This document shows, one piece after another, positions 846 through 52,042 of a stretch of DNA of 64,000 nt (within the stretch, counting starts at the first letter, position 1; each line of letters begins with the position of its first letter). Under the pieces are notes generated by a model. That model was given only the letters and a program-made list of their open reading frames with translations, was not told the DNA's origin and searched no databases. Source of the DNA: a virus; the IMG/VR virus record IMGVR_UViG_3300031857_000025; one strand, given 5' to 3'. Position numbers and translations under genes: made by a program.

Positions 846-2060
846 ATGAAATCAAAACTTAGTAACTTAGCAAAAGAAGTCCTTACAGAAGCTTGCTGGG
901 ATGGATACAAACAAATAGGAATGAAGAAGAAAGGTGACCGTCAGGTTCCAAACTGTGTTCCTATTAAAGAGTCTGAACAAGAACTAGATGAAATTTCGTT
1001 GATGACAGGCGATGCCGATCAAGCAACTAGTTTAGAATTATTAAATGAGTTTGTTGATATGGACGATAAATTCGAAAAGTTATTAATACGATTGTATGAC
1101 AGGGAACAAGTAACAACCTGGAGGAGTGATGACAAATGGTATAATGATCCAATGGTTCGCGATGCTCCAGCCGATGCACGTATAAGAGAGTATATTAAAA
1201 GTAAGGCCAAGGAAAGCCAAGGACAATTATATGTTCTCATTACTCCGAGTGATCGCGGAAGTCGTACTGTACATCATTTAATAAATTTAGCCGAGCCAGT
1301 ACGTACCATGTATGTTGGTAAAATTGAAACTGAGCCTAGTACCGGGCCGTATAGTATGAAAACCATGTTTGGTATTGATAGTCAGGTAGTACATTGGAGT
1401 AATTTTGCACAGGAATATAAAGGCTATGGTTACGGTAAGTTTTTATATGATACATTATTATATCGATATGGCACACTAGAAAGTGATAGTACTTTATATC
1501 AAGGAAGCCAGCGCATGTGGATGGGACATATGCCAAAGGTCGCTAAATTCTTTGGTGGCGTAGTTAAGAATCCAGAAGGTTGGGGCGGCGGAAGTCAGTC
1601 AGAGTATCCTACATTGGTTGTTCCATTAACAGCCGAAGATGTTGCGGATAAAGCATTTATACGTGATGATATAGGATCACTTGTAGCATTCCATAGTAGT
1701 ATACCGACTCAGGTTAAAAAAGTTGCTGCGTTATCTAAAGGATTAAGTTATCGTAACGGTTCATTAGGAATTGCATTTTACGAATTGTCTATTAAAGACA
1801 AAATTGATGACAGAGAAGAGCGAGGAAATCGATATAATGATGATGGTGAACGACAAAGCGAAGATGAAACCTTCATTGAGTGGTTAGACTCGGAACAAGG
1901 CCAAACTAGTTATGAAGAAATAATTACAGCACTATATGATTTATATGATATGTCATCTAAAATAGACTTTGACAAAGCTAAAGTAGTATTTGTAGTAGCA
2001 CAAGATGCTACCGTTATTATAACCAAAAAAGGTAGTAGTTACGACTATGCATTATTATGA
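846..2060 (+). CDS. putative internal head protein with GNAT-like acetyltransferase domain
   Basis: Likely start ATG 846 (MKSKLSNLAKEVLTE). Has the CWDGYKQIGMKKKGDRQVPNCVP module seen in T4-like head-associated proteins and GNAT motif A YKGYGYGKFLY...LESDSTL. Confidence 0.6.
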   Translation: MKSKLSNLAKEVLTEACWDGYKQIGMKKKGDRQVPNCVPIKESEQELDEISLMTGDADQATSLELLNEFVDMDDKFEKLLIRLYDREQVTTWRSDDKWYNDPMVRDAPADARIREYIKSKAKESQGQLYVLITPSDRGSRTVHHLINLAEPVRTMYVGKIETEPSTGPYSMKTMFGIDSQVVHWSNFAQEYKGYGYGKFLYDTLLYRYGTLESDSTLYQGSQRMWMGHMPKVAKFFGGVVKNPEGWGGGSQSEYPTLVVPLTAEDVADKAFIRDDIGSLVAFHSSIPTQVKKVAALSKGLSYRNGSLGIAFYELSIKDKIDDREERGNRYNDDGERQSEDETFIEWLDSEQGQTSYEEIITALYDLYDMSSKIDFDKAKVVFVVAQDATVIITKKGSSYDYALL

Positions 2061-2704
2061 TAAAACTAAGTGAAATACTAAAAGAGATAGGCGAAGGCAC
2101 TGCCGAACCATTCAAATGGCGTGCCGTAGATAAAGCTGATCAGAAAATTGTAACACATGCTAAATCACTACAACCATTTGGAAGTGGCGAGCATAAAACA
2201 CAATTCAGAGTAACTTATTTAGCACAAGGTACAGTTTTATATAACATATCATTTCTAACAGTTATTAGACGCGGAATACATTTTAAAAAGCCAGGAGCTC
2301 CTGAAACGGCTTGGTCACCAAATGGTAAAGTATTAATTGACGCTAATATATCGTTTAGTACTATGAATGATGCTAACGATCAAATGCCTGAAACTAATCT
2401 AAATGAACAATATCAGTTAATGGCTACAGTAATGGAATGTATTGAAGATTACGTTAAACGCTTGGAAGGGTTAAAGGTAGAAGTTGCTGGCGGCAAAGAG
2501 CATACATGTGTGATTTATAAATTATATGTAGTACCTAAATCTGATATAGAAGCTGGCCCTCAATTGGATAGTCGCCGTGGTCGTTTATATAAAGCATTCT
2601 TACAAAAAAATCTAAATAAGCTTCCATTTAAAATGACAATTGATACGGGTAGTGATAATGACTACTTTGAATTGGTACGAGATACTGATAGCTATAAACC
2701 GTAA
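2057..2704 (+). CDS. hypothetical, putative internal head protein
   Basis: N-terminal MIKLSEILKE leader; ATGA overlap with the upstream gene. Confidence 0.6.
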   Translation: MIKLSEILKEIGEGTAEPFKWRAVDKADQKIVTHAKSLQPFGSGEHKTQFRVTYLAQGTVLYNISFLTVIRRGIHFKKPGAPETAWSPNGKVLIDANISFSTMNDANDQMPETNLNEQYQLMATVMECIEDYVKRLEGLKVEVAGGKEHTCVIYKLYVVPKSDIEAGPQLDSRRGRLYKAFLQKNLNKLPFKMTIDTGSDNDYFELVRDTDSYKP

Positions 2705-2711
2705 TATTTAT
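2704..2711 (+). promoter_or_regulatory. putative late promoter ATATTTAT
   Basis: One of about 17 intergenic copies lying shortly upstream of start codons. Confidence 0.6.
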
Positions 2712-2725
2712 TAGAAAGATTAGTC

Positions 2726-2986
2726 ATGGCAAATAAAAATATAAAACTTACGTCTCTACTCCCAAAGGTAAATGAAGGCCAAGCAGAAACTGAGAACTAT
2801 ATGTTCTTTAGTAATATGGAGCAAATGAGACGACAAATAGATATACTGTTACAAATTGATCCACAGGTTATAGAAATGGTTTTACAAAACGGTCATAGTT
2901 GGGCCGAAGATCATATCACTGTGGCCAAAGAAAATATGGACCAGGTGTTTGATTTTTTAATGAATGAATTAAACAAAGGTAAGTAA
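2726..2986 (+). CDS. hypothetical, putative internal head protein
   Basis: IKLTSLLPKVNE leader; 86 aa. Confidence 0.6.
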   Translation: MANKNIKLTSLLPKVNEGQAETENYMFFSNMEQMRRQIDILLQIDPQVIEMVLQNGHSWAEDHITVAKENMDQVFDFLMNELNKGK

Positions 2987-3214
2987 ATGAATTTCTTAAA
3001 ATCATTGTTACAGGACGAGGCTGGGCAACAATCTACTAAACGTATTTTAGCAATTATCGGTACATTATTTTTATGTATCACCATGATGGCAAACTCCTAT
3101 TCTCATGAGTCAATTAAACCATCTACAGAACTAGTTTCTGCAGTTGAAGTTATTGTTTGTGTTTGTATTGGAGCTACATCATTAGATAAATTTGCCGGAC
3201 GTAAAGAATCCTAA
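2987..3214 (+). CDS. small two-TM membrane protein, holin-like
   Basis: Two hydrophobic segments and a charged C-terminus; 75 aa. Confidence 0.4.
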   Translation: MNFLKSLLQDEAGQQSTKRILAIIGTLFLCITMMANSYSHESIKPSTELVSAVEVIVCVCIGATSLDKFAGRKES

Positions 3215-3226
3215 TGAAGTACTGAA

Positions 3227-3520
3227 ATGTTAATATTACTATGCATATTAGTTATTATATCAACAATAATATCTAATGTGTATAGTATTATAACATGGAG
3301 ATCTCAGTTACAATTATCATATCAAAAACCATATTGGATAGTTCAGAAAAAATTCTTAAAATGGTGGGTAACCGGTACCATTAATGGACAACCGGTTGCA
3401 TATGAATCTGAACGACATGCGCGACTATTTATGCGTAATCATTGGAAAACTAAACAACGACGTTTAGGAAAAAGAGAAACAATTTCTATAAAAAATCTGG
3501 ACAAATATTTGGATAACTGA
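3227..3520 (+). CDS. hypothetical membrane-anchored protein
   Basis: N-terminal hydrophobic helix. Confidence 0.5.
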   Translation: MLILLCILVIISTIISNVYSIITWRSQLQLSYQKPYWIVQKKFLKWWVTGTINGQPVAYESERHARLFMRNHWKTKQRRLGKRETISIKNLDKYLDN

Positions 3521-3539
3521 AAGATTATTCTTATCTTTA
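3508..3539 (+). promoter_or_regulatory. Bacteroidota-type sigma70 promoter (-33 TTTG / -7 TATCTTTA)
   Basis: TTTG 3508-3511, 20 nt spacer, TATCTTTA 3532-3539. Confidence 0.65.
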
Positions 3540-3545
3540 TAGTCT

Positions 3546-3914
3546 ATGAGTAAACCAGTAAAACTTAAAGTAAATGACCGTGTACGTATCTTTTGGTTCG
3601 GTACACATTACAAGGGAACGGTCACCCGATTACGTGAAGAATTAGGTGTAGATGTACAGTTAGATCATGATGTATTTTTACCGAGATGTCAGTGGAAAAT
3701 TGTGGAAGCAAAGAAGAGAGCACCATGGTATATCATGGAAAAATTACCTGCTACAGATACCATAAAAGCACCAATAATACCTGTAAAAATGGCGGAAAAA
3801 CCTGTCAAGAAAATCACTAGTGTTACCGATCTTTTTGATGAAAATTCCAAGACAGAACTAGAAAAAACATTTGAAACTCAAAAGAAATTTACCCGTGGAA
3901 AAGTTAAAAAATGA
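3546..3914 (+). CDS. hypothetical protein (SH3/KOW-like N-terminus)
   Basis: LKVNDRVRI...YKGTVT pattern; directly behind a host-type promoter. Confidence 0.6.
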   Translation: MSKPVKLKVNDRVRIFWFGTHYKGTVTRLREELGVDVQLDHDVFLPRCQWKIVEAKKRAPWYIMEKLPATDTIKAPIIPVKMAEKPVKKITSVTDLFDENSKTELEKTFETQKKFTRGKVKK

Positions 3915-4236
3915 CCCATTTCCTTACTGTCATTTATACTATGTACATGTAGGTAATAATCACGGAAGGACCTGGATATTTTATCCTTTGCATTGTGATT
4001 ATCCTAACCCAATGGATAAGCGTAATATCAGTGAAATTCGCCGGAGACTTGGCTGGACATCTACCCCTATGGAGATATTTAAAATAAAACTCATAAAAAA
4101 GGATTACAATGGCCAAAGTCAAAACCAGCAGCGCCTCAAACTTCATAAAGAAGCCGCGCAAAAAGCGTCCCGGAATTCATTCAAAATGCCGCCACTCGAA
4201 ATTAAAAGGCTCAAAGAGATACAAGAAGGTATATAG
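3871..4236 (+). CDS. hypothetical protein (uncertain; overlaps both neighbours)
   Basis: Fills the gap 3914-4109 but needs a TTG/GTG start and overlaps the next gene by 128 nt. Confidence 0.3.
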   Translation: MKLKRNLPVEKLKNDPFPYCHLYYVHVGNNHGRTWIFYPLHCDYPNPMDKRNISEIRRRLGWTSTPMEIFKIKLIKKDYNGQSQNQQRLKLHKEAAQKASRNSFKMPPLEIKRLKEIQEGI

Positions 4237-4255
4237 GGGTCAAGGCCGGGTATAA
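4109..4255 (+). CDS. small very basic protein ending YRGQGRV (not in ORF track)
   Basis: Translated by hand: MAKVKTSSASNFIKKPRKKRPGIHSKCRHSKLKGSKRYKKVYRGQGRV; AAGGA upstream. Confidence 0.7.
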   Translation: MAKVKTSSASNFIKKPRKKRPGIHSKCRHSKLKGSKRYKKVYRGQGRV

Positions 4256-4281
4256 TTGGTATAACTTAATATTTATATAAA

Positions 4282-4518
4282 ATGATAGAATTAATAAACA
4301 TAAATACAGGTCAGGAATTCTACGGTGAAGAATTAGAATACTTTATCGATGATGATAATGCCATCGGAGAGGTATATCTTGATGGTGATTTAATTTTTCA
4401 ACATGTAGAATGTTATTCCGAAGATCAGCTTAAAAAACAATTATATACAGAGTTTGCGGTCCGTTATGATATAGATGATGATAACATTTATATGGACCAA
4501 GATGAGTATGAGTTATAA
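4282..4518 (+). CDS. small acidic hypothetical protein
   Basis: 78 aa, D/E-rich; ATATTTAT at 4269-4276 upstream. Confidence 0.6.
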   Translation: MIELININTGQEFYGEELEYFIDDDNAIGEVYLDGDLIFQHVECYSEDQLKKQLYTEFAVRYDIDDDNIYMDQDEYEL

Positions 4519-4537
4519 ATAAAAAAAAAGGAGTGTT

Positions 4538-4720
4538 ATGACAACATTAGAGCTATTTGATCAAATGAAAACTTTATGGACTGAGTTCGAAGACAACCAT
4601 CTTAAGTTCACTGAAAAGGGTAATAAAGCTGCTGCTACCAGAGCTAGAAAATCTATCGGTGATATTAAGAAGTTAGTTACAGAATACCGTAAAGAATCTG
4701 TTAACGAATCTAAAAAGTAA
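4538..4720 (+). CDS. histone H1-like protein, Hc1 family
   Basis: KGNKAAATRARKS...KKLVTEYRKES matches the short Hc1 family motif GNKAAxxRARK; AGGAG SD. Confidence 0.8.
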   Translation: MTTLELFDQMKTLWTEFEDNHLKFTEKGNKAAATRARKSIGDIKKLVTEYRKESVNESKK

Positions 4721-4753
4721 ACCTATTCTATTGGATCAAAATTTAAGGATAAT

Positions 4754-5143
4754 ATGAAAGATTTAAAAGAAAAACTTAGAAATTTAATTTCAGAAGAAAT
4801 TGCCAGTGTCATGATGGAAGCCTCAGGAAGAGCTGGTGGATTGCTTAATCCTAAAGATTTTGATCCAGTAGATCCTGAGGTTCATATTACCGGATATGGT
4901 ACTATGAGCAGATCGGCATTACGTGAAGAAATTGCACGTAGATTGGAAATGCTAACTAAATCAGCAAAAGAAGCAGCTGCTGCAGAAACGTCATATGCTA
5001 ACTATGAATCCATGTTACCATTGTTAACAGAGAAAGGAATGATAGCATCATTGATTCGTGCTGAGCTAGCTGTTGCTGATGAAATGGAAGCTATACGTAC
5101 ACAAGGTGGTAGAAGAACTACACCTATCCCAAAACAAAAATAA
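4754..5143 (+). CDS. hypothetical, putative internal head protein
   Basis: LRNLISEEIASVMME leader. Confidence 0.6.
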   Translation: MKDLKEKLRNLISEEIASVMMEASGRAGGLLNPKDFDPVDPEVHITGYGTMSRSALREEIARRLEMLTKSAKEAAAAETSYANYESMLPLLTEKGMIASLIRAELAVADEMEAIRTQGGRRTTPIPKQK

Positions 5144-5160
5144 ACTTTTCTTAAAAAAGA

Positions 5161-5192
5161 TTTGGATATTTAGAAATCAGTTATTATATTTA
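5161..5192 (+). promoter_or_regulatory. Bacteroidota-type sigma70 promoter
   Basis: TTTG 5161-5164, 20 nt spacer, TATATTTA 5185-5192. Confidence 0.65.
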
Positions 5193-5216
5193 AGTATAAA
5201 TTAAAATTAATTAGTT

Positions 5217-5414
5217 ATGTATTACATTGGTAAAGTAAAAATTGCAACAGATTCCCCTAAGGGTGGAGTAAAATGGTCAACCGAAACTTATTTGGTTCAA
5301 GCGGAGACCGTAACGCATGCAGAAGCGTTGATTGTTAAGGACTTTGAAGGTTCTGGTATTGAATTTGATGTTAAGTCAGTTTCAGCTAGTAAAATTTGTA
5401 AAGTAATTAAATAA
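5217..5414 (+). CDS. DUF4494-like protein
   Basis: YIGKVK...ETYLVQAETVTHAEA resembles the Bacteroidota DUF4494 motif E.YLVDA.S.TEAEA. Confidence 0.65.
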   Translation: MYYIGKVKIATDSPKGGVKWSTETYLVQAETVTHAEALIVKDFEGSGIEFDVKSVSASKICKVIK

Positions 5415-5424
5415 TCAAAAGGAG

Positions 5425-5772
5425 ATGCGTTATAAACAAGGAGATTTAGTAGTATTCAACTACAGCGGTACTAATCAAGTAGGATTGGTAACAAACGTAA
5501 GAACTAAGAAAGGTGTTTCTACCTATGATATTCGTTCTGAAAAAGGTTCTTGCCATTTAATGGTTCCGGTAAACAATAGTAAAGCCGATATCTGGATTAA
5601 TTCAAAATTAACTCAAATCTGGACTAATACTGGTGGTGATAATAACATGTGGATTGACCGTAAGTATGGTCATACTATTGCAAATTATTCGCCTGAATTA
5701 GAACTTGACGAGTTTCATTTTGAAAAGAATAATGACTTCGTATTTAAAACAGTTGGACCAAGATCTTATTAA
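5425..5772 (+). CDS. hypothetical protein (KOW/SH3-like start)
   Basis: YKQGDLVVF...GLVTNV. Confidence 0.6.
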   Translation: MRYKQGDLVVFNYSGTNQVGLVTNVRTKKGVSTYDIRSEKGSCHLMVPVNNSKADIWINSKLTQIWTNTGGDNNMWIDRKYGHTIANYSPELELDEFHFEKNNDFVFKTVGPRSY

Positions 5773-5773
5773 G

Positions 5774-6771: not shown

Positions 6772-6782
6772 AACTTAAAACA

Positions 6783-7055: not shown

Positions 7056-7082
7056 TAACGATATTTATTAGAAAGGACCAGT

Positions 7083-7662: not shown

Positions 7663-7675
7663 TATATTATAGAAA

Positions 7676-8166: not shown

Positions 8167-8207
8167 CTTTTACTTGATATCCGAACAAATAACCCCCATT
8201 TTACAGT

Positions 8208-8449: not shown

Positions 8450-8467
8450 AGATCTAAATTAAAATAT

Positions 8468-15366: not shown

Positions 15367-16632
15367 ATGGCATTAGATGTTAATATACTTAAAGCCTCTT
15401 TAACTGCTATTTATACAGCAACTACTAATACTAATAATGCCACAGCATTATCTAATGCTATATGTAATTATTTAATTCCAATCACTCCTGCTAGTACTGG
15501 CGTAGAATCCGGTAGAGCGCAGATGATAGCTACGTTTAATTCATTTGCAGGTCAGCCTAATGGACATATTAATGCATTGACAACGGCATTGCCGGTATAT
15601 GCAGCTGTTGTCGCATCTGGGATGTCGCCGGAATATACCGGCACTGCACCGACATCAGTTACATTACCAAATTTTACTAGTTTATATAAAGCATTAACAG
15701 ATGTGGAAGCTTCACATGCTGATTGCGCTACTATTATATCAGCTGCTATCCATACATGGTTTAGTAGTGGCACCGCAACACATAATATTGAACAGACAAC
15801 TGTTAATTGGGGTACACCTGTCAAAGTATCGATAATACAAAAATTAAAAAATAAAATTGATAAAGCTGTTACGGTATTATCGGCTGATTATAGAAAAATT
15901 ATGCAGTCAGAATATAATACCATAAAAAATTCTTCGGAAGTGACAACAAAAGAATATGCCGAGTTAATACGTGGCGAATTAAATCAAAATGAATTAGTGT
16001 CGGCACCTATTAACGTTGATAATACAGAAGTATTGGCTGGTATAAAAAATACTCCGACTAAATTCAGATCTACAATTGGCGAACGTATTATTGCTGTTGC
16101 AATAAAAGATATAGGAATGAAAGAAACTCTAGATAAAAACTATGGAGGAATTCCTAGTAAACGTAAAACATCTATAGGCCAGCGATTTGGATTTACGGAT
16201 AAAACATCGTACAAAACTATGATAAAGGAAGGACGTATTGATGAAATGTTAAAACAAACTGGCACAGCAAATCCAAAATCCGTGGGTGAAGGCTATTTTT
16301 GGTGTGCGGCTGCAGTGACTTCATGGTACTTAGAGGCTAATGCAGACGGTCCGAGATCAGCAGGAGTATCTCGATGGAAAGAGTATGCACAAAAAGAGAA
16401 AAGATTTACTAGTAACCCTATATTAGGCTCTGCTATCATATACAATTTTAGTCATATTGGTATTGTAGCAGGCGTAATAGCTGATAAAAACGGTATACCA
16501 ACTCGTATATTAACAATTGAAGGTAATACTAAGGGCGGTAAAGGCGAACGTAACGGTAATACTGTAGCGTATAAAAGTGTCAGTGCTACTAGTAAAACTA
16601 TAGTAGGATATTTTAATCCTGCAAGCAAGTAA
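15367..16632 (+). CDS. virion-associated CHAP-domain peptidoglycan hydrolase
   Basis: YFWCAAAVTSWY (Cys), SHIGIV (His), LTIEGNT. Confidence 0.8.
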   Translation: MALDVNILKASLTAIYTATTNTNNATALSNAICNYLIPITPASTGVESGRAQMIATFNSFAGQPNGHINALTTALPVYAAVVASGMSPEYTGTAPTSVTLPNFTSLYKALTDVEASHADCATIISAAIHTWFSSGTATHNIEQTTVNWGTPVKVSIIQKLKNKIDKAVTVLSADYRKIMQSEYNTIKNSSEVTTKEYAELIRGELNQNELVSAPINVDNTEVLAGIKNTPTKFRSTIGERIIAVAIKDIGMKETLDKNYGGIPSKRKTSIGQRFGFTDKTSYKTMIKEGRIDEMLKQTGTANPKSVGEGYFWCAAAVTSWYLEANADGPRSAGVSRWKEYAQKEKRFTSNPILGSAIIYNFSHIGIVAGVIADKNGIPTRILTIEGNTKGGKGERNGNTVAYKSVSATSKTIVGYFNPASK

Positions 16633-16684: not shown

Positions 16685-17143
16685 ATGGAATCAAAATCAT
16701 TTTTCAATGCACTACGTAAAATTATACGCGAAGAAGTGCAACAAGCTGTTCGTACAGAAATGAAAAGAATGCTTAACGAAAATAAATCAGATCATACTAA
16801 GGTTATACAACATGGATTAGAATTAAATCGTATGACTAATAAACAGCCTAAAAAAACATTTGCAAAAGATCCAATGTTAAATGATTTACTTAACGAGACA
16901 GCTACAATACCAGCTCCAGTTGATGAATGGTCGACTATGAATTTTAGATCAGAAATGGCCCAGGCCTTTGGTGGTATGCGACATTCCATGGATGATAATA
17001 TTCCGTATGTAGTTCCATCAACTGACCTAAATGGCGCACCTGTTAATTTAGGTAATGAAAACGTTGCTGCGGCTGTAACAGCTATGACAAAAGATTACTC
17101 GGCATTAATGAAAGCTATTGATAAAAAGAAAGGTGTAAAATAA
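16685..17143 (+). CDS. hypothetical virion protein
   Basis: LRKIIREEV...MLNE leader; ATATTTAT 16658-16665 upstream. Confidence 0.65.
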   Translation: MESKSFFNALRKIIREEVQQAVRTEMKRMLNENKSDHTKVIQHGLELNRMTNKQPKKTFAKDPMLNDLLNETATIPAPVDEWSTMNFRSEMAQAFGGMRHSMDDNIPYVVPSTDLNGAPVNLGNENVAAAVTAMTKDYSALMKAIDKKKGVK

Positions 17144-27940: not shown

Positions 27941-28615
27941 ATGGGATATTTGAATAATTCTACAATAACAGTTGATGCCATCCTTACCAAAAAAGGACGT
28001 GAACTTTTAGCACGTGGAAGAGATGAGTTTAAAATTACTCAATTTGCTTTGAGTGATGATGAAATTGATTATGATTTATATAATACAGAACATCCATTAG
28101 GTACTGCATATTACGGAGCGGCTATTGAAAATATGCCAATCATTGAAGCTATTCCAGATGAAACTCAAATGATGAAATATAAATTAGTTACATTACCCAA
28201 AGGTACGGCTAGAATACCAATTGTAAGTATTGGACAGACAGTGTTAAATTTACAAGGACGTGAGCGTGCACTTATCGCCCCTAATACAATAAACTTTACT
28301 AATGGTAATGCACAATATGGATATACAGCAATTTTAGCTGATTCAGATATAGCCGAAATTAGAGTAACTAGAGCAGCATCAAATCAAGCTGGAGCTCCGA
28401 CAGTAGCGCAATTTATTGGTGATTCGGAAGCCGCGCAAAGTGTAACAGTCTCTGGAATGGAATTTGAAATTGTTGCTAAGGAACAATTATTAACAAGTAA
28501 GACAACTACTGTATTATTTATTGGTAATGAAACTGGTGGTAGAGCTTTGTTGACAATTAATGTAGCAAGATTAGAAGTTGCAGTAACGGCAGGTGCTCCT
28601 ACTGAACAAAGATAA
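27941..28615 (+). CDS. baseplate/tail-collar structural protein
   Basis: ILTKKGRELLARG..FKITQFALSD; ATATTTAT 27915-27922 upstream. Confidence 0.65.
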   Translation: MGYLNNSTITVDAILTKKGRELLARGRDEFKITQFALSDDEIDYDLYNTEHPLGTAYYGAAIENMPIIEAIPDETQMMKYKLVTLPKGTARIPIVSIGQTVLNLQGRERALIAPNTINFTNGNAQYGYTAILADSDIAEIRVTRAASNQAGAPTVAQFIGDSEAAQSVTVSGMEFEIVAKEQLLTSKTTTVLFIGNETGGRALLTINVARLEVAVTAGAPTEQR

Positions 28616-39843: not shown

Positions 39844-41505
39844 ATGAATTTAGGTGAATGGCTAGTAGAACAAATCATAACTGAAGATACTAATATTAAA
39901 CAAATCATAGCTGTATACCCAGGACGTTTTCAACCATTTGGTCGTCATCATGCAGAAGCATTTCGCTGGTTACAAAAACAATTCGGCGCTAACAATGCAT
40001 TTGTAGTTACTAGTGATAAAGTGGAAAAACCTAAATCGCCATTTTCATTTGCTGATAAAAAACTTATAATCGGTCAGTATGGTATTAAAAATGTAATACA
40101 AGTTAAGAATCCATATAAAGCCGAAGAGTTATTATCACAATACGATCCAGCCACTACTGCGGTAGTATTTATGGTTGGTGATAAGGATATGCAAGAAGAT
40201 CCTAGATTCCGTATTGGTAAACTTAAGTCTGGTAAAGATTCTTATTTCCAAGATTATAAAACACATAAAAACAATATGGTCGGATATGACCAACATGGAT
40301 ACTTAATTGTAGCACCTCATGTATCATTAAACATTCCAGGATATGGAGAAATGTCAGGAACGGCATTAAGAGCTGCATTAAAAAACGGTACACCAGAAAC
40401 ATTTAAAAAAATATTAGGATGGGATGATATGAAGTTAGTTGATTTAGTAAAAGATCGTTTATCAGAAGGACTGATAACAGAAGGTGGTGCTGGTGGACAC
40501 ATGGCACATCCATTTGATATTGATTGGGTAAAGACTGGAAAGGATCTAGTTAAAGTATTTGTACAGTCAGCTGAATACCTAAAGAAAGGACCAGCCTCTG
40601 TTAAAATTGATGGCGTAAATGCTAGTATTCGTTTAGTAGATGTCGATGGTAAAAAAGTGTTTGTAATGGACCGCGGTTCTAATAAACCATTAGATGTTAA
40701 AGGTATTACAAAAGCTGATTTAGAAGATCGTTTTGGTGTGGGCCATGGTATGATTATTATTGGTGGAAAAGTATTAGATATATTTAATGACGCATTACCA
40801 GATATTACGCCAATGCTTAAGAAATTAGGAATGTGGGACAATCCAAATATTTTGTTTAATATTGAATATGTAGCTGGTAGTACTAATGTATTATCATATA
40901 ATAAAAACTTCTTAGCTATACACGGATTGCTAGAAATTGAACAAGTAACTCCAAAGCGTAGAGCTACTAAAGAGATTTCATATAATAAAAAAGCATTGCA
41001 AGACTTATTAAATGCTTTAGCTCCGACTGCTAATGAAAATGGATATGAGGTATTAGGATCAGTTCCTACTACATTAGATTCAGATCCGGACTTTCAAGGC
41101 GAATTAGCAAAGAAATATACTGTTATTGTTAATGGTAAAAAAGTATCAAAGACATTGAGCCAATGGTTAGCTACTGCTACTAATCAAAAAGAAACTATGA
41201 TTAAATTAGCAGATGGTAAAACGGTAGGTGCTCAAAGTAAACAAATATTAATGGCAATTGCAGATAAAAAGGATGTAGCCGAGTTAGTAGCAGATCCTGC
41301 AGATCAACAAAAAGCAATTGACGGATTTGTTATGTATTTAGCTACTATGGAACTAGGAAATGCAGTACTAGAAGCATTAAGTTCTCCACTAGGTCCAGTA
41401 CGTGAACATGAAGGTATTGTAATACGTGATCCTAAAATATACAGTAAACCATTTAAGATTACTGGTAGATTCATAGTTAAAGGATTAGAATCATCTTTTA
41501 GATAA
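39844..41505 (+). CDS. HxGH-family nucleotidyltransferase fused to a ligase-like domain
   Basis: YPGRFQPFGRHH and MSGTALR in the N-half; KIDG, IEY, EGIVIR, FKITG in the C-half. Confidence 0.65.
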   Translation: MNLGEWLVEQIITEDTNIKQIIAVYPGRFQPFGRHHAEAFRWLQKQFGANNAFVVTSDKVEKPKSPFSFADKKLIIGQYGIKNVIQVKNPYKAEELLSQYDPATTAVVFMVGDKDMQEDPRFRIGKLKSGKDSYFQDYKTHKNNMVGYDQHGYLIVAPHVSLNIPGYGEMSGTALRAALKNGTPETFKKILGWDDMKLVDLVKDRLSEGLITEGGAGGHMAHPFDIDWVKTGKDLVKVFVQSAEYLKKGPASVKIDGVNASIRLVDVDGKKVFVMDRGSNKPLDVKGITKADLEDRFGVGHGMIIIGGKVLDIFNDALPDITPMLKKLGMWDNPNILFNIEYVAGSTNVLSYNKNFLAIHGLLEIEQVTPKRRATKEISYNKKALQDLLNALAPTANENGYEVLGSVPTTLDSDPDFQGELAKKYTVIVNGKKVSKTLSQWLATATNQKETMIKLADGKTVGAQSKQILMAIADKKDVAELVADPADQQKAIDGFVMYLATMELGNAVLEALSSPLGPVREHEGIVIRDPKIYSKPFKITGRFIVKGLESSFR

Positions 41506-41531: not shown

Positions 41532-42074
41532 ATGACAGAAAAACAATTACGTGAAGCAATTCGTAAGGAAATACGTAGCCAAATAAGTGAAGCGGATACT
41601 GATTTTTTAAACAAAATTGGTAGCAACTTAAGATCTAAATTAGGATCTGCAAAAACTCAGTTAAACGTTGGTTTAGGTAAAATTGACCCAAAACGTATTG
41701 CTAGTATGACACCGGAACAAAAGGCTGAATTAACTGCACAATTAACACAGCAGTTAGGATTAACGGCAAAAGATTTTAATACTATCAAACAACGTATTGC
41801 TCGTAAATTAGGAGCGGCTGAAAAGTTAACAACAACTGAGAGTATAATTAATGAGTTAGATATGGATACACCAGAATCTAAAGTATCTTCTGGATTATCA
41901 CAACGATCAGATCGAGTTAAAGAAACTGCTGCGTTTAAGCAGATGGTAAAGATGTTAGAAAATAAGCCAGCTACGGAACAAGCTAATTTTGTATTAGAAT
42001 TATTACAAGGTTTACCATTAGATGAAGCAGCTAAACGTATGTTACGCATGCGTATTAAAACCGAGTTAAAATAA
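41532..42074 (+). CDS. hypothetical, putative internal head protein
   Basis: LREAIRKEIRSQISE leader; ATATTTAT 41505-41512 upstream. Confidence 0.6.
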   Translation: MTEKQLREAIRKEIRSQISEADTDFLNKIGSNLRSKLGSAKTQLNVGLGKIDPKRIASMTPEQKAELTAQLTQQLGLTAKDFNTIKQRIARKLGAAEKLTTTESIINELDMDTPESKVSSGLSQRSDRVKETAAFKQMVKMLENKPATEQANFVLELLQGLPLDEAAKRMLRMRIKTELK

Positions 42075-42678: not shown

Positions 42679-42679
42679 G

Positions 42680-44062: not shown

Positions 44063-44083
44063 TAATAAATTAACTAGAGTTAC

Positions 44084-45667: not shown

Positions 45668-45689
45668 TATTTATTAATAAATAGAACTT

Positions 45690-47591
45690 ATGGCAGATAC
45701 TTCACTACAAGCTAGACTTAAACGACTGTTTTCAACTAATGTCGTTGTGCGTAGAATAGCAAAAAACCGTTTAAAGGCTATTGATACTAATAAGTTACAA
45801 TCAAACGGTTCATTGTCAACAACTGCATATATAGATCGTTTTGCCGGTCTACATAGAGGTCAAGGAGGCCAGTCAGTTTACAATGGTACATATAACTTTC
45901 ATCAATCTAAAGTAGAATTATTTTCAGATTATGAGGCTATGGATTTAGATCCTATTATCGCATCGGCATTAGACATATATGCAGATGAAAGTACAGTTAA
46001 AGATTCGGAAGGTGATACTTTAACAATATCATCGCCTAATAATGAAATACGTAAAGTACTTCATAATTTGTTTTATGATATACTTAATATAGATTATAAT
46101 TTATGGCCATGGATACGTAATGCTTGTAAGTATGGAGACTTTTATCTTTATCTAGATATTGAAGATGAGTTAGGAGTTATTAATGTAATTCCAATGTCTG
46201 CATATGAAATGGTACGTGAAGAAGGATATGATCAAGAAAATCCATATGCATATCGATTTGTAATGCAAGGTGCTCATACTACTACTAGACATTTTGCGGG
46301 TACCGGAGGACAAAATCCACGTAATGAATTTGAAAATTACCAAATAGCTCATTTCCGTTTATTATCAGATACTAATTTCTTACCATATGGTAAATCAATG
46401 ATTGAACCAGCACGTAAGATTTTTAAACAACTTACGTTGATGGAAGATGCTATGTTAATACATCGTATTATGAGAGCACCAGAACGTCGTATTTTTAAAA
46501 TTGATGTCGGTAATATACCACCTAACGAAGTTGATAGTTATATGCAACAGATTATCAACAAGATGAAAAAGACCCCGTATATTGATGAAACAACTGGGCA
46601 ATATAATTTAAAGTTTAATATACAAAACATGATGGAAGACTATTATCTTCCGGTACGTGGTGGAGATTCGGGAACAGCTATTGATACATTATCTGGATTA
46701 AGTTCGGATGGTCAGATTGAAGATATTGAATACTTACGTAATAAAATGCATGCCGCTCTTAAAATACCTAAAGCATTTTTAGGATATGATGAAGGTGTAG
46801 AAGGTAAAGCTACTTTAGCGGCTGAAGATGTACGTTTTGCTAGAACTATTGAACGTATACAAAAAATATTCGTATCAGAGTTAACTAAAATTGCTATTGT
46901 ACATTTATATGCACAAGGATTCCGTGATGAAGATTTGGTTAATTTTAGTTTATCACTAACTAACCCATCATTAATATATGAAAAGCAAAAAATTGAATCT
47001 CTTAATGAAAAGGTAAGTTTGGCCGGTAATCTTAAAGAGACTACCATGTTTTCAGAAAAATATATTTATGAAAATGTATTTGGATTAAGTGAAGAAGAAT
47101 GGCAAGCTGAACGTGAATTAGTTATTGAGGACTTAAAACAAGACTTCCGTAAGGAACAAATTAAGTCAGAAGGTAATGATCCAAAGAAAACTAATATGAG
47201 TTTTGGTACACCTCATGATATTGCTAGTATGCACGTTGCTAATAAAGGTGGATTGTTACCAGGTATGGAGCAAGAACATGTAGCCGGGCCAGGAAGACCT
47301 CAAGAGCCAGGTACTTGGGGTAGCCATGCAAGTCCGCATGGAAGAGATCCATTAGGTATTAAAGATTTAGGTAAAACATTTACTACTGATAAATCACCAT
47401 TACAACATAATTTCCGTGGTGGTAGTGCATTAAGTACGGAGCATATTGATACTAAAGCTATAATAAAATCAATGGCTAGTAAAGTAAAAACAAAACAAGT
47501 ATTAAAAGAGTCATTAGATATTGAGATTAAAAATGATGATGCTGGTACTATGTTAGATGAAAACAATTTACTAGATATAAATTTAACATAA
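45690..47591 (+). CDS. portal protein (gp20-like)
   Basis: LMEDAMLIHRIMRAPERRIFKIDVGN, EDYYLPVRGG, ALKIPK; ATATTTAT 45667-45674 upstream. Confidence 0.95.
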   Translation: MADTSLQARLKRLFSTNVVVRRIAKNRLKAIDTNKLQSNGSLSTTAYIDRFAGLHRGQGGQSVYNGTYNFHQSKVELFSDYEAMDLDPIIASALDIYADESTVKDSEGDTLTISSPNNEIRKVLHNLFYDILNIDYNLWPWIRNACKYGDFYLYLDIEDELGVINVIPMSAYEMVREEGYDQENPYAYRFVMQGAHTTTRHFAGTGGQNPRNEFENYQIAHFRLLSDTNFLPYGKSMIEPARKIFKQLTLMEDAMLIHRIMRAPERRIFKIDVGNIPPNEVDSYMQQIINKMKKTPYIDETTGQYNLKFNIQNMMEDYYLPVRGGDSGTAIDTLSGLSSDGQIEDIEYLRNKMHAALKIPKAFLGYDEGVEGKATLAAEDVRFARTIERIQKIFVSELTKIAIVHLYAQGFRDEDLVNFSLSLTNPSLIYEKQKIESLNEKVSLAGNLKETTMFSEKYIYENVFGLSEEEWQAERELVIEDLKQDFRKEQIKSEGNDPKKTNMSFGTPHDIASMHVANKGGLLPGMEQEHVAGPGRPQEPGTWGSHASPHGRDPLGIKDLGKTFTTDKSPLQHNFRGGSALSTEHIDTKAIIKSMASKVKTKQVLKESLDIEIKNDDAGTMLDENNLLDINLT

Positions 47592-47636
47592 TAACTATAT
47601 TTATTAAAAAGATACGTACAAACAGGATGTATAAAC

Positions 47637-48485
47637 ATGAGTAAGATTAAACATGCGAAAGTAAAGAATACTGGTTTAATTTTTGAGTTACTCGTACGCC
47701 AAGTAGCATCGGATACTATGAACAATAAAGATTCGGCAGCACTTCGTATAATTAAAAGAAATTTTAGAAAGAACTCAGAATTATCAAAAGAGTTAAAATT
47801 ATACCGTTCTTTACATGAAGAAACGTTTAACTCACAGCGTAAAGCAGAAATGTTTTTAGAAGCAGTACTTCGTACAAAACGCAGTATTAACGAAACAGCT
47901 TTAAAGCGTGAAAAATATAATTTAATAAAAGAAATACGTAACAATTATAACATTGAAGATTTTTTCAAATCACGTGTTAATAATTATAAACTACATGCTT
48001 CGATTTATAAATTATTTGAATTTGCAGAATCAGATGATCCAAAAGAATATGTAGAAAATCGATTTTCATTAACCGAATATATTTGTACAGTACGTAAGAC
48101 AGATACTGAAGCAGTACCGGTATTAACTAATGAAGATAAAGATGTTCGATTATTAGCATCTAAATTAATCATTGATCGTTTTAACGAAAAATATGCTACA
48201 TTAAACGAATCACAAAAACGTTTACTACGCGAATATATTAATAATGTAACTAACTCAGTGACACTTAAACAGTTTATTGTTAAAGAATCTGCTATGTTAC
48301 GTGATACTATTAATAAACTAAAAACTACAGTACCTAGCAAAGTTATACGTATCAAATTAAATGAAGTCGCTAATTTATTAACTACAATGAGCCGTCGTAA
48401 TAATATCGAAGATAAAGATATATTAACAATGCTTCGTTACTATGAATTAGTAGAAGAACTTAAAAGCATTAAAGGAGCAAAATGA
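47637..48485 (+). CDS. conserved head-module hypothetical protein
   Basis: KNTGLIFELL; FNEKYATLNESQK; located between portal and protease. Confidence 0.65.
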   Translation: MSKIKHAKVKNTGLIFELLVRQVASDTMNNKDSAALRIIKRNFRKNSELSKELKLYRSLHEETFNSQRKAEMFLEAVLRTKRSINETALKREKYNLIKEIRNNYNIEDFFKSRVNNYKLHASIYKLFEFAESDDPKEYVENRFSLTEYICTVRKTDTEAVPVLTNEDKDVRLLASKLIIDRFNEKYATLNESQKRLLREYINNVTNSVTLKQFIVKESAMLRDTINKLKTTVPSKVIRIKLNEVANLLTTMSRRNNIEDKDILTMLRYYELVEELKSIKGAK

Positions 48486-48784
48486 GTTTTTATCCTGGAT
48501 ATACAGCCACAGAACAAAATCAATTTACTAGACTAGGGCATCCTGGTAAGTATGTGTCATCGTATTTATATACTAGTGGTCAAGTAGACTTTACTGGTAG
48601 TAATTATGGATATGGTAGTATTATTGTTAAGACACCTGGTAATGCAACCGCTAGTTTATCGGACGGCGGAGAAATTATATTAAATGACTTAACAGCCGGT
48701 GTTATATATGACTTGTCAGTGAGACAGATTAAAGGTGGATCGGCTAGTGTTATTTACGTACTAAAGCGTCAAACAGGATTCTAA
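48482..48784 (+). CDS. small virion structural protein
   Basis: Beta-rich, 100 aa; AGGAG SD. Confidence 0.6.
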   Translation: MSFYPGYTATEQNQFTRLGHPGKYVSSYLYTSGQVDFTGSNYGYGSIIVKTPGNATASLSDGGEIILNDLTAGVIYDLSVRQIKGGSASVIYVLKRQTGF

Positions 48785-48785
48785 T

Positions 48786-49607
48786 ATGGGCCTACGTAAA
48801 GATATAGAAAAGAATTTTCGTCGGTTAATGGAAGCAGTAGACCGCGTTTCTGATAAAGAAGCCAACACGGATTTTGAAGACTTGGACGATAAAGATTTAG
48901 ACAATGATGGCGATACTGATAGTTCAGATCGATATCTAAAAAAGCGTTTAAGTAAAGTTGCTAAAATGGACGAAGAAGAAGAGTTAGATGAAATGTCTAC
49001 GACTGCAGGTGTACCTGGCTATGATTCGCCAATGGCATTTGGTAAAGCTGATGATGATACTATTGAAGCTGATGGTTGGAAAAAAACTCCTAAGACAAAT
49101 AAATTCTTTAAACGTATGGAAAGTAAAACATCTGATTATAAAAAAATGATGTCCGAAATGTACGGTGTTAACCCTAGTATTACAGAATCTAGTAATCCAG
49201 AAATGGATAAGTTAGTTACGGCATTTGTTGATAAGATAGCGGATAGAAATGGGTATCCAACATCAGAAGCTATCATATCAATATTTGAAGCACTTAAGCG
49301 AAAAGGATTTTTACATAAAAGCGTTGAATACAAATCACCTTCAGGCTATAGTATTGATGAAGCAGTATCATATCGTGAATACAAAAAAGATGAATCTGCT
49401 ACACCATCACAAAAGGTAAACAAAAGTATTATGGAAGTTAATCGTATGTTAGCTGAAATAGAACGAGTAGTAGCACATAACTTAAAATTAAAAAATGAAT
49501 CTGGTGTTAATTCTGGACAATTCTGGAAATCAACAGGGGCTCGTTTTTCAAAAATTAACGAACGTATAGTTCGTATTTCAAATAGATTAAAGGAATTATC
49601 AAAATGA
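48786..49607 (+). CDS. putative internal head/core protein with DxDxDG loop
   Basis: RRLME leader; DKDLDNDGDTDSSD; multiple I/LxE sites. Confidence 0.6.
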   Translation: MGLRKDIEKNFRRLMEAVDRVSDKEANTDFEDLDDKDLDNDGDTDSSDRYLKKRLSKVAKMDEEEELDEMSTTAGVPGYDSPMAFGKADDDTIEADGWKKTPKTNKFFKRMESKTSDYKKMMSEMYGVNPSITESSNPEMDKLVTAFVDKIADRNGYPTSEAIISIFEALKRKGFLHKSVEYKSPSGYSIDEAVSYREYKKDESATPSQKVNKSIMEVNRMLAEIERVVAHNLKLKNESGVNSGQFWKSTGARFSKINERIVRISNRLKELSK

Positions 49608-50419
49608 GTAATTTTTTAGATTGGCGTGATTATACAAGACAGCCACATATCAAACAATTAATTGAAACAAAAGGCGTTGAAGCTGCCCGTATACAATTCG
49701 TAAAAGAAAGTAATAAGGCATTATGGGATGATCCATTTATTATAAACGAATCATATGAATCACCTGGTACGTCGGTATCATCTAATAATTCAGCTGCGGT
49801 CGGTACTAATCCACAGTTGATTAGCGTAACAGCTGAAACTCAGAGCTTTGCATGGGCATCTGGATTGACTAATAATATTACCGGTTCTAATCATCCGACA
49901 AGTGCTAGTATACATGAATATTATTTTGATGTAACTGCTTATAACGGAGGAGTTGACTATACATATGACCACGTTGATACATTTAAAAAATTCAGATTTT
50001 TAATTGTATCTGGAGCAGCTGGATATACATATAGTAATACAACTGGTTTAGCAGGATTAATTACTGCATCTTATACAAGATCTGAAACTGGTAATATTAC
50101 TGGTAGTTTGTTAAACAGATTTAAAGATGCCGTTAATACCCAAGCCGCCGGAGCAGTAGTTGCTGGATTTACAAATACAATCGCACCAGCTGATTTATTT
50201 ACTGTAACATTAACAGCAGGAAGTGGCTCTTTGACAATTGAACATGACAATGAAGGTGGTGTACCGGATCCATATACAAACTTTATATCAGCTACAGCAT
50301 CAATCACAGTAACTACAAACGGTACAGATAAGATATATGATGAGACAGGTACGTATTATGATACAATTTTAGTAGATGGTGCTGTGTATCCATATACATC
50401 ATTAACTCGTAAAGGATAA
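49604..50419 (+). CDS. virion structural protein
   Basis: Thr/Ser/Gly-rich; head module. Confidence 0.6.
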   Translation: MSNFLDWRDYTRQPHIKQLIETKGVEAARIQFVKESNKALWDDPFIINESYESPGTSVSSNNSAAVGTNPQLISVTAETQSFAWASGLTNNITGSNHPTSASIHEYYFDVTAYNGGVDYTYDHVDTFKKFRFLIVSGAAGYTYSNTTGLAGLITASYTRSETGNITGSLLNRFKDAVNTQAAGAVVAGFTNTIAPADLFTVTLTAGSGSLTIEHDNEGGVPDPYTNFISATASITVTTNGTDKIYDETGTYYDTILVDGAVYPYTSLTRKG

Positions 50420-50420
50420 T

Positions 50421-51026
50421 ATGAGCAAACAACTTTTAGTTGATTATACAGTATTTGAAGTATCACCTCAACAAATAAACGAATCATTAACACAAAATAA
50501 CGGACGTTTAATTGTTAATGGAGTACTACAACGTGCTAATGCTCAGAATCAAAACGGCCGTGTATATCCAATGGAAATATTACAACGTGAAGCAAAAAAA
50601 TATAGTCAAACATTTATTGCGGAACGTAGAGCATTAGGAGAACTAGACCATCCAGATTCATCTGTTGTTAATTTGAATAACGTTAGTCATAATGTATTAG
50701 GTATGAATTGGAATGGTAACGATCTTGTCGGTACAGTAGAAATTCTCAATACACCGTCAGGTAATATACTTAAAGCATTATTTCAATCAGGAATTCGTTT
50801 AGGTATTTCATCACGCGGCATGGGGTCAGTTAAAGAAGTAATGCGTGAAGGAAATGCTACATTAGTAGTACAAGATGACTTTGATTTGATTGCATTTGAC
50901 TTTGTAAGTAATCCATCCACCCACGGAGCTTTCTTATCACCCGTCAATGAGTCAGTTAATAAAGTAATAAATGACAAATACGGTCATATAAATCGTATTA
51001 TACAAGATATCATAATGGAGTTTTAA
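50421..51026 (+). CDS. prohead core protease (gp21-like)
   Basis: NQNGRVYP, ALGELDHP, VSH, TPSG, LGISSRGMGS, DFVSNPSTHGA. Confidence 0.95.
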   Translation: MSKQLLVDYTVFEVSPQQINESLTQNNGRLIVNGVLQRANAQNQNGRVYPMEILQREAKKYSQTFIAERRALGELDHPDSSVVNLNNVSHNVLGMNWNGNDLVGTVEILNTPSGNILKALFQSGIRLGISSRGMGSVKEVMREGNATLVVQDDFDLIAFDFVSNPSTHGAFLSPVNESVNKVINDKYGHINRIIQDIIMEF

Positions 51027-51027
51027 T

Positions 51028-51288
51028 ATGCCATCATTATTAGAATTAGCACATACATCACAATACGGGCCTATCAATCCAGGACAAATGGGAACTGGAT
51101 ATACTACTGGTCCTAATGCAGAACCATTGGTTAACATGCAATTAGGTAACCCAGTTGCTAGTTCTGTATCATTTGATAGTTTGGAACAAGCATCTCATAA
51201 CAGTCTTTATGGTCCTTATAATACGCCAGGTCAGCCAGGCGCTGGATTTATTCCAGATCCATTTGCAAATATACCGCCTGAACTATAA
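51028..51288 (+). CDS. Gly/Pro-rich small protein with internal duplication
   Basis: SLLELAHTSQYGPINPGQMG and SLEQASHNSLYGPYNTPGQPG. Confidence 0.6.
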   Translation: MPSLLELAHTSQYGPINPGQMGTGYTTGPNAEPLVNMQLGNPVASSVSFDSLEQASHNSLYGPYNTPGQPGAGFIPDPFANIPPEL

Positions 51289-51296
51289 GGATTAGT

Positions 51297-51635
51297 ATGA
51301 ACTTAAAACATAAGTATAATAAACTGTTTACGGGTAAGCCAAAGTCTAATGATCAGTTACTTACGGAAGGTACTGTATTTTTAGGTATTGGAAACGCTAA
51401 ACGTAAAATTAATGAAGCAGAAAATGCCTCATATTATCAGGATCTTATGTCACAATTAGATGAAGCTGTAGCACAACTTAATCAGGTAATAGCTGATATA
51501 GATGCTCAGACAGAAGATGATATGGCATATGATTATGAAGTGAAAGCTGCACGTACAACAATTAACCGTTACGGTTCAGCTGCAATGAAAAATATAGCAG
51601 GTATTAGAAAAGTACTTAGAGGATTATCAAAATGA
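51297..51635 (+). CDS. hypothetical, putative internal head protein
   Basis: LLTE and INE sites; AAGGA SD. Confidence 0.6.
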   Translation: MNLKHKYNKLFTGKPKSNDQLLTEGTVFLGIGNAKRKINEAENASYYQDLMSQLDEAVAQLNQVIADIDAQTEDDMAYDYEVKAARTTINRYGSAAMKNIAGIRKVLRGLSK

Positions 51636-52042
51636 AAAAGTTTGAACAACAATTACTACGTAGTATCTTAAATGAAAAGTATTTAGGAGAAACTGAAAAA
51701 CCTAAAATGACTAAAGAGGAAAAGAAAGCTTTCTTGGAAGCAGTATCTCAATATCATAAGTTAGGAGAAATGGTTTACCGTAACAATCAGTTATCAGAAT
51801 TATCAGAGACATTAAGTAACATTGTTACTACTGCAGAAAATTTAACTATGCAAGAGTCTGAACATTGGTTTGATAATGTTACGGTTAGCCGTCATATGAA
51901 GCAAATACAAGAAGCCTTTAAGGTATTTGAAAAGACTGCCGGTGAGATGTCAGGCATGCAACAACGTTTAGAAGCTGCATACGAAGATATTGGTACAGTA
52001 CTAAACAAGTACTATAATGTAAATAATGCATTAGAAGGATAA
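51632..52042 (+). CDS. hypothetical, putative internal head protein
   Basis: LLRSILNE leader. Confidence 0.6.
   Translation: MKKFEQQLLRSILNEKYLGETEKPKMTKEEKKAFLEAVSQYHKLGEMVYRNNQLSELSETLSNIVTTAENLTMQESEHWFDNVTVSRHMKQIQEAFKVFEKTAGEMSGMQQRLEAAYEDIGTVLNKYYNVNNALEG

Follow-up and report, generated by a model that had tools for sequence, protein, structure and literature searches.

The window, a 64,000-nucleotide stretch of DNA (IMG/VR virus record IMGVR_UViG_3300031857_000025), comes from an uncultured freshwater T4-like phage and combines a head block containing a gp21-family prohead protease with a dispersed set of otherwise unrelated proteins whose short N-terminal leaders end in hydrophobic-x-Glu. 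It holds 72 credible genes, every one on the + strand, at a G+C content of ~33%, and its closest cultured relative, the T4-like Flavobacterium myovirus vB_FspM_immuto, is distant (35-58% protein identity). Genes are named here by their start positions, and a slash marks a predicted cut. An initial annotation had listed ten such N-termini; all ten start coordinates are real ATG starts that give the quoted N-terminus, and the sites it cited in the capsid protein (LVTE58/A) and in the protease (INE21/S and VNE177/S) are present. Comparison with relatives bears out nine of the ten as recurrent or conserved leaders ending in hydrophobic-x-Glu, while the tenth, at 16685, also begins with a leader and is located in the baseplate block. 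An anatomy of exchangeable leaders and of modules bounded by hydrophobic-x-Glu is well supported by the sequence comparisons, and we have little doubt of it.

Predicted protease sites in the head block

The head block contains the following genes and features.

44084, + strand: large terminase
45690, + strand: gp20 portal
47637, 48482, 48786 and 49604, + strand: genes between portal and protease
48786..48833, + strand: leader of 48786 (MGLRKDIEKNFRRLME/A); orthologues start with MDYLKKFKKYLKE/A, MKLLDEIEKYFE/A and similar
49362..49604, + strand: conserved C-terminal domain of 48786 (AVSYREYKKD..), which comes after SIDE/
49604..49750, + strand: probable propeptide of 49604 (LIE21/, INE49/)
50421..51026, + strand: prohead protease of the T4 gp21 family (phrog_207, E 3.8e-54; T4 gp21 structure 5JBL, E 1.3e-14)
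51028, 51297 and 51632, + strand: genes after the protease
51297..51368, + strand: 24-residue leader of 51297 (MNLKHKYNKLFTGKPKSNDQLLTE/G), the best-kept part of a family that is 26-60% identical overall
51632..51676, + strand: N-terminal segment of 51632 (MKKFEQQLLRSILNE/K), with hydrophobic-x-E at position 15
After 51632 and before the scaffold, + strand: spanin pair and bS21 gene
53187..54062, + strand: acidic gp22-like scaffold, identified by its composition and its position adjoining the capsid gene, with sites LKE7/A and LEE29/
54084..54257, + strand: propeptide of the gp23-type major capsid protein (phrog_138, E 1.7e-74), with sites LLE33/G, LLE49/N and VTE58/A

The GELDHP and SSRGMGS stretches of the protease align with the matching stretches of T4 gp21. 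In a comparison with 80 related head modules fetched for this purpose, the protease's own sites are kept almost throughout (INE21/S in 61 of 61 relatives, MRE143/G and VNE177/S in 60 of 61 each). The three capsid sites are each kept in 36 of 36 relatives, and VTE58/A lies 21 residues ahead of the VRR arm, which aligns with mature T4 gp23*. Conservation extends to the scaffold, where LKE7/A is kept in 31 and LEE29 in all of 37 relatives.

Similar sites recur in four other proteins around the protease. The C-terminal domain of the 48786 family (SYRDYKKD..) has hydrophobic-x-E 0-2 residues upstream in 49 of 53 distinct orthologues whose surroundings are otherwise unlike, and differing modules are inserted between this domain and the leader. 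The 49604 protein, absent from the initial list, keeps its sites at 21 and 49 in each of 14 orthologues with variable flanking residues, and all 57 orthologues of 51632 have the hydrophobic-x-E triplet at position 15, again with variable flanks. Whereas the window's 51632 protein terminates at ALE/G, its relatives gain C-terminal modules after ..SE/ or ..NE/ joints. One mobile module of 75 residues follows LINE/ in a 48786-type protein (L053) and closes a 51632-type protein (L028), where RLNE/ precedes it. The leader of 51297 also stands in front of an unrelated 180-residue body (L028_5868), and the slot of this gene is characterized by a conserved leader with unrelated bodies.

Leaders and modules of the dispersed genes

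Outside the head block, the relevant features are as follows.

2..541, + strand: the window's first open reading frame (ORF), 5' end open, matching residues 35-213 of its orthologue L186_8573 at 98% identity
846..890, + strand: leader of 846 (MKSKLSNLAKEVLTE/A), class a, common to the homologues P0003, P0004, P0014, P0016, P0020 and P0021
891..971, + strand: basic 'CW' peptide module of 27 residues (ACWDGYKQIGMKKKGDRQVPNCVPIKE; isoelectric point 9.2), residues 16-42 of 846, between LTE/ and IKE/
993..2057, + strand: mature GNAT-like domain of 846, starting ISLMTGDAD after ELDE/, supported by homologues, model and Foldseek
2057..2086, + strand: T4-type 10-residue leader of 2057 (MIKLSEILKE/IGE/G), class c, hydrophobic at 4 and 7, L at 8 and E at 10 (rules: PMC9026906)
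2726..2776, + strand: leader of 2726 (MANKNIKLTSLLPKVNE/G), class b, kept in the L185 and L189 orthologues, with ATATTTAT 22 nt upstream
4754..4819, + strand: leader of 4754 (MKDLKEKLRNLISEEIASVMME/A), class d, fitting the class-d core motif
16685..16780, + strand: class-d-type N-terminus of 16685 (..LRKIIREEV..MLNE/N), a gene with a lysozyme-like protein on one side and a gp25-like baseplate wedge protein on the other
39844..39885, + strand: leader of 39844 (MNLGEWLVEQIITE/D), residues 1-14, kept in the closest relative L083, with ATATTTAT and a Shine-Dalgarno site upstream
39886..40455, + strand: NMNAT/cytidylyltransferase-like module, residues 15-204, matching PHROG 'cytidyltransferase' families
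40456..40482, + strand: joint RLSE/GLITE/ between the two modules of 39844; relatives read LINE/, VLTE/, LIKE/ or LLKE/
40483..41502, + strand: RNA/DNA-ligase-like module (GGAGGHMAHPFD.., KxDG motif VKIDGVN), residues 214-553, from motif, model and structural matches
41532..41591, + strand: leader of 41532 (MTEKQLREAIRKEIRSQISE/A), class-d variant, with ATATTTAT and a Shine-Dalgarno site upstream

The initial annotation had treated these N-termini as one leader type; by sequence comparison they fall into at least four classes, namely MKSKLSNLAKEVLTE (class a), MKNIKLTS.. (class b), the T4-like 10-residue leader (class c) and the 20-residue MKxxELRKIIREEVxxxLxE (class d). The T4 10-residue rule (hydrophobic at 4 and 7, I/L at 8, Glu at 10) is obeyed exactly by 2057 alone in the window, and in relatives by the leaders MITFKQFLLE, MKTFKQYISE and MFKLKDIVKE of homologous modules. 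In the other nine leaders of the window, which range from 14 to 32 residues, only the C-terminal half of the rule is obeyed. A stricter pattern with the T4 leader as its model, hydrophobic-x-x-hydrophobic-[LIVM]-x-E (hydrophobic P7 and P4, [LIVM] P3, Glu P1), occurs within the first 16 residues of 7 of the 72 proteins vs. 1.9% of internal windows, a five-fold enrichment (binomial p = 5e-4), and in 3 of 162 spurious ORFs.

Leader exchange and joint conservation are both found for the GNAT-like domain of 846. Among the 26 homologues read out of 30 found, [LIV]-x-E stands directly before the domain in every one, and the domain itself stands, depending on the phage, behind a leader of any of the classes a to d, in some cases together with the CW peptide or a HExxH module. 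The N-terminal variants are the 846 leader with the CW peptide; MKNIKLTSIVKQIIKE/S (P0002, P0005, P0007 and P0008), which has KNIKLTS in common with the 2726 leader; the T4-type, 2057-like MIKLTDLLKE/ or MFKLKDIVKE/; MKRSDLVRIIKEEVASTVKE/, resembling the N-termini of 4754, 41532 and 16685; and, in one case, a leader with the CW peptide and a HExxH module. The AlphaFold model of the domain (predicted local distance difference test, pLDDT, 85.5) matches acetyl-CoA-binding GNAT domains in Foldseek, best the C-terminal domain of M. tuberculosis ICL2 (E 1.4e-4, probability 0.99) and further Rv1916, NatD and TacT, and the stretch YKGYGYGKFLYD is invariant or nearly so. The model and these matches indicate that residues 50-404 of 846 adopt a GNAT fold with acetyl-CoA-binding motif A. 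The CW peptide is itself mobile: it matches internal stretches in several PHROG families and in 275 phage records, mainly T4-like cyanophages, is inserted into the NMNAT-ligase protein of L091, and stands ahead of a 2057-type body in L191 and L197. That body (IGE[GA]xAxP.KW) follows an AINE/ joint in L191 and GINE/ inside a polyprotein (L104_7552).

Gene 39844 joins two enzyme-like modules. The first matches PHROG families 3041 and 395 (E 4.5e-7 and 8.5e-7) and, below the cut-off of 21 bits, Pfam PF01467 (19.2 bits); its motif GRFQPFGRHH is a variant of the canonical GxFxPxHxGH. The second gave no match against Pfam or PHROG and weak rows only in Foldseek (E 2e-3), while K, D and G of its KxDG motif are invariant in 11 sequences and the top 23 VIA-align matches of its model (pLDDT 90.5) are all ligases or capping enzymes, with T4 Rnl1 the best at a moderate Z of 8.1 (176 residues aligned, root-mean-square deviation 3.9). 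Across 19 related loci the ligase-like module begins directly after [LI]xE, except in L086-L089 and the distant L101. In the internal position it is preceded by LITE/, LINE/, VLTE/, LIKE/ or LLKE/, and in the N-terminal position by MKTFKNYILNE/, MITFKQFLLE/ or MFLKE/. The T4 leader reads MKTYQEFIAE, of which the last three are, as sequences, near copies. The module order is reversed in L092, and the modules are separate genes in L093-L095, where the NMNAT-like module stands behind MKTFKQYISE/. The initial suggestion of a partly polyprotein organization holds, on sequence grounds, for 846, 39844 and 48786, which are multi-module, have the motif at their joints and are split, permuted or swapped there in relatives.

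The class-d core, defined as [LIVMF][IVL][RKSI]EE[IVL], was scanned in 2264 ORFs, those of the window and of the fetched loci taken together. In 105 ORFs the core lies within the first 24 residues; its 11 internal occurrences lead to an expectation of ~1.2, i.e. it is ~85-fold enriched at N-termini, and the leader fronts 22 unrelated body families. In L186 (8573-11470), such genes form tandem arrays, with as many as seven in a row behind MKxxELRKIIREEV..E/. Upstream of the part matched by the window's first ORF, L186_8573 begins with the class-d leader MKAQEFRNLIREEISKIIKE/T, and we infer that the first ORF has a class-d leader beyond the window edge. Orthologues of 4754 have hydrophobic-x-E at the same position with altered neighbours (INE/E, LAE/G, LSE/G), and those of 41532 in L083 and L090 read ..ILNE/G at the same position; 41532 is missing from its slot in L084-L089. 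Class-d leader genes also occur within the head block of close relatives (L002_6648, L052_6686 and L056_6658). In another freshwater phage, a leader-gene array (L104:2243-9084) includes a superoxide dismutase-like protein behind MIRLRDIITE/.

The gene at 16685 is a core gene found in more than 557 related loci, with its entire N-terminus conserved, including L[TN]E; its product is predicted to be mostly disordered, and a look-up in the ESM Atlas was uninformative. Just upstream of it and of the gp25-like gene, a 421-residue protein (15367-16632) has an endolysin-like C-terminal region (phrog_9589, E 3.9e-8) and may be a gp5-like baseplate hub lysozyme.

The element ATATTTAT occurs in 23 copies in the window and lies 13-40 nt upstream of 15 gene starts (2704-57087, e.g. 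2704, 16658, 39822, 45667 and 47597). It precedes the portal, head and tail genes, 47637, large ORFs at 27941, 36304 and 57120, and four of the ten candidates (2726, 16685, 39844 and 41532), and it heads the leader-gene arrays of relatives. The T4 late box is TATAAATA, whose reverse complement the element partly resembles. A Shine-Dalgarno site is present upstream of most candidates.

IMG/VR scans with 2057 and with 4754 found no relatives, and a scan with the 846 domain led to one locus; orthologues were obtained from a metagenome scan. In vB_FspM_immuto, a comparison with the window found no orthologues of the dispersed candidates; similar leaders occur there on a nucleotidase and on genes adjoining the terminase.

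Several neighbouring features were observed along the way. The overlapping spanin-like pair and the bS21 gene (52044-53015) are placed within the head block, after 51632 and ahead of the scaffold; 52044 has a match in an Rz-like PHROG family, the N-terminus of 52288 is a lipoprotein-type signal, and in close relatives this slot is filled by class-d leader genes. The large terminase of L086-L089 (e.g. L089:5547-7847) is interrupted, with the N-terminal 160 residues and the remainder in separate ORFs ~1 kb apart, which suggests an intein or homing-endonuclease insertion. Two large proteins (59138-60880 and 61424-63841) are identical over their first ~40 residues (MATTQYNQLAIAYKKLSGKSHTSVNFDPGNETIGSGVQISA) and are probably paralogous fibre proteins with a common attachment domain. 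A 117-residue protein (56712-57065) has collagen-like GPQGxxG repeats close to its N-terminus.

Proposed capsid loading and its alternatives

We propose that the short N-terminal leaders guide their proteins into the prohead's scaffold core, and that the 50421 protease would cut after hydrophobic-x-Glu, stripping the leaders and separating the modules of multi-module precursors. Predicted substrates in the head block are the capsid protein, the scaffold, the protease itself, 48786, 49604, 51297 and 51632. Predicted dispersed substrates are 846 (leader, basic CW peptide and GNAT-like domain), 2057, 2726, 4754, 39844 (leader, NMNAT-like and ligase-like module), 41532 and probably the window's first ORF. 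About a dozen unrelated leader proteins would thus probably be loaded into the capsid and trimmed like T4 internal proteins, because their interchangeable leaders end in the cutting motif of the head protease. We give this T4-type explanation of loading and trimming, multi-module precursors included, a rough probability of 0.6. For the leaders themselves, capsid targeting combined with cutting by the 50421 protease is the best reading and a reasonably likely one. Core binding, cleavage, retention in the virion and ejection with the DNA would follow from the analogy with T4, and injection into the host is plausible on the same grounds.

In favour of this proposal are the head machinery with its conserved sites, the exchange of leaders on the GNAT-like body, module starts that coincide with the motif, the N-terminal enrichment of the class-d core, the slot of 51297, the exact fit of 2057 to the T4 rules, and the position of ATATTTAT ahead of structural genes, candidates and leader-gene arrays alike. 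Other observations weigh against it. The initial annotation had taken the bare (I/L/V/M)-x-E as the mark of a leader, and this motif is near chance: 32 of the 72 proteins (44%) have it within their first 30 residues vs. 37% of internal 30-residue windows, the large terminase and the primase also start with it, and it does not discriminate; relatives were therefore compared to judge the list of leaders. In the head and baseplate loci of relatives, the strict T4 10-residue leader shows no clear enrichment (10 of 1753 ORFs, 0.57% vs. 0.34% per internal position) and was thus not taken as a general definition. The joint of the GNAT family is always followed by Ile, so that the triplet could just be the first conserved residues of the domain. 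The leader of 39844 is absent from the orthologues in L085-L089, and the joint reads LLVC, with the motif gone, in L086-L089; leader and joint site therefore appear dispensable in these relatives. The clearest class-d core belongs to 16685, a core gene of the baseplate block, and its role as head cargo is doubtful. Finally, ATATTTAT also precedes non-structural genes such as phoH, and while it is probably a late promoter, the timing of expression is one that we infer.

Published virion proteomes offer a further, indirect link. In T4-like cyanophage virions, mass spectrometry detected non-structural proteins annotated as 'cytidylyltransferase', in S-SM1 (T4-GC190, PMC3037559) and in S-CREM2 (ORF154, PMC10665884). 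SfCH8_135, which is annotated as a cytidylyltransferase, is 59% identical over part of its length to the same-named Syn9 protein and shares the CW module, together with many hydrophobic-x-Glu sites; its placement in T4-GC190 rests on the shared name. The cyanophage protein of this kind matches PHROG family 764, vs. 3041 and 395 for the window's NMNAT-like module, and a tblastn search with this module found no cyanophage counterpart, so the virion protein was dropped as a homologue of the module. By sequence, the virion 'cytidylyltransferases' connect to the window solely through the shared CW module. Both points count against the proposal, to which these proteins lend weak support.

Among the alternatives, two are comparably unlikely. 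According to the first, only the head-block proteins (48786, 49604, 51297, 51632, scaffold, capsid protein and protease) would be substrates, core- or scaffold-like, cut up and largely expelled, and the dispersed proteins would have look-alike helices for another reason and stay unpackaged. Site conservation is indeed best documented in the head block, the dispersed genes 846-4754 sit among small genes of unknown role, and the baseplate location of 16685 and the leaderless 39844 orthologues point the same way. However, the leaders of the dispersed bodies interchange with T4-type 10-residue leaders, class-d leader genes also lie in the head block of close relatives, and through the CW module 846 is tied to a cyanophage protein whose kind has been reported from virions (PMC3037559). 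Moreover, T4 internal-protein genes are scattered too.

The second alternative, which we also rate low, is that the leaders are shared tags with another job, such as recognition by another enzyme, oligomerization, control of translation or stability, or processing in the cytoplasm, and that the terminal Glu is incidental. The occurrence of class-d leaders on very small proteins encoded in tandem, and on one gene of the baseplate block, would agree with such a role. Yet each leader class ends in the protease motif, the internal module joints have the same motif, leaders are exchanged for one that nearly copies the T4 targeting sequence, and no partner enzyme but the protease is seen in the window. 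Chance, by which Lys/Glu/Leu-rich N-terminal helices in an AT-rich genome would yield (I/L/V/M)-x-E often enough, is in keeping with the bare-motif counts but is already disfavoured and very improbable given the enrichment of the stricter pattern and of the class-d core at N-termini and the reappearance of the motif at homologous joints with dissimilar surroundings.

Comparison with known systems and significance

The proposed T4-type loading and trimming can be compared with several described systems. T4 gp21 cuts after L/I-x-E, and the first 10 residues of IPIII suffice for packaging, with residues 4 and 7 required for targeting and 8 and 10 for processing (PMC9026906); at the internal-protein loci of T-even phages, the targeting sequence alone is conserved among diverse proteins (PMC3012670). 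The likeness to T4 IPI, IPII, IPIII and Alt (PMC3012670, PMC9026906) consists of a gp21-family protease, leaders ending in L/I-x-E and a 2057 leader that obeys positions 4, 7, 8 and 10, as well as conserved leaders on unrelated, variable bodies, genes scattered outside the head block, and an enzyme among the predicted cargo, as Alt is in T4. The slot of 51297 in particular resembles the T-even loci in which the targeting sequence alone is conserved (PMC3012670). In contrast to T4, there are at least four leader classes here, mostly of 14-24 residues, and about a dozen candidate cargo genes vs. four. The putative multi-module precursors, permuted, split or swapped at their joints in relatives, are a further difference, and the predicted cargo differs as well (GNAT-like, NMNAT-like with ligase-like, and a 27-residue basic Cys peptide).

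Within the head block, 48786, 49604, 51297 and 51632 resemble the T4 core proteins gp22, gp67 and gp68 in their position around the protease, between the portal and capsid genes, and in having several predicted sites, as the T4 core proteins are cut into fragments. They differ in that no similarity to gp67 or gp68 was found (PHROG and Pfam gave no match) and in that their middle parts are variable cassettes.

The giant phages phiKZ, 201phi2-1 and SPN3US (PMC9026906, PMC10052503, PMC7411985) likewise process many propeptide-bearing virion proteins after Glu and pack ejection proteins together with their DNA, but their gp21-related proteases have another motif and unrelated substrates, and exchangeable short leaders or module swapping at joints are undescribed there. 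Polyvalent proteins, known from phages and conjugative elements (Iyer et al. 2017, PMC5512222), are multi-domain effector precursors, GNAT domains included, that are thought to be delivered with the DNA; their release is proposed to occur via their own peptidase domains, whereas here the joints have the prohead-protease motif and entry would be via a T4-type leader. In the literature on capsid-targeting leaders in marine and cyanophage T4-like phages, we found nothing beyond T4 (T-even) and the giant phages. In Synechococcus phage S-B43, just upstream of the terminase (L103:2479-4081), a 'structural protein' (T4-like GC0119) consists of small basic Cys modules in a row, one of them the CW peptide, and the gene after it starts with MKSFQDFLQE/, a near copy of the T4 targeting sequence.

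The window agrees with the T4 logic and extends it: leaders come in several classes, candidate cargo genes number about a dozen, precursors are multi-module, and the predicted cargo includes enzymes. More tentatively, and at somewhat less than even odds, these genes may represent plug-in cargo shared by aquatic T4-like phages, in which any module could be sent to the capsid by interchangeable leaders, precursors would be cut by the head protease, and enzymes would be delivered with the DNA. The GNAT-like acetyltransferase, the NMNAT-like/ligase-like pair and the small basic Cys peptides would then be counter-defence or takeover tools for the first minute of infection.

In T4, four proteins are known to have the capsid-targeting sequence, and foreign proteins are already being loaded into heads with its help. 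If the proposal is true, each genome would hold about a dozen cargo genes, with leaders of several classes and precursors separated by the protease, and many small "hypothetical" genes in aquatic T4-like phages would be cargo. The proposed reading predicts exact mature N-termini, and, if it is true, the proteins that abundant environmental phages deliver at infection would be readable from their genomes directly.

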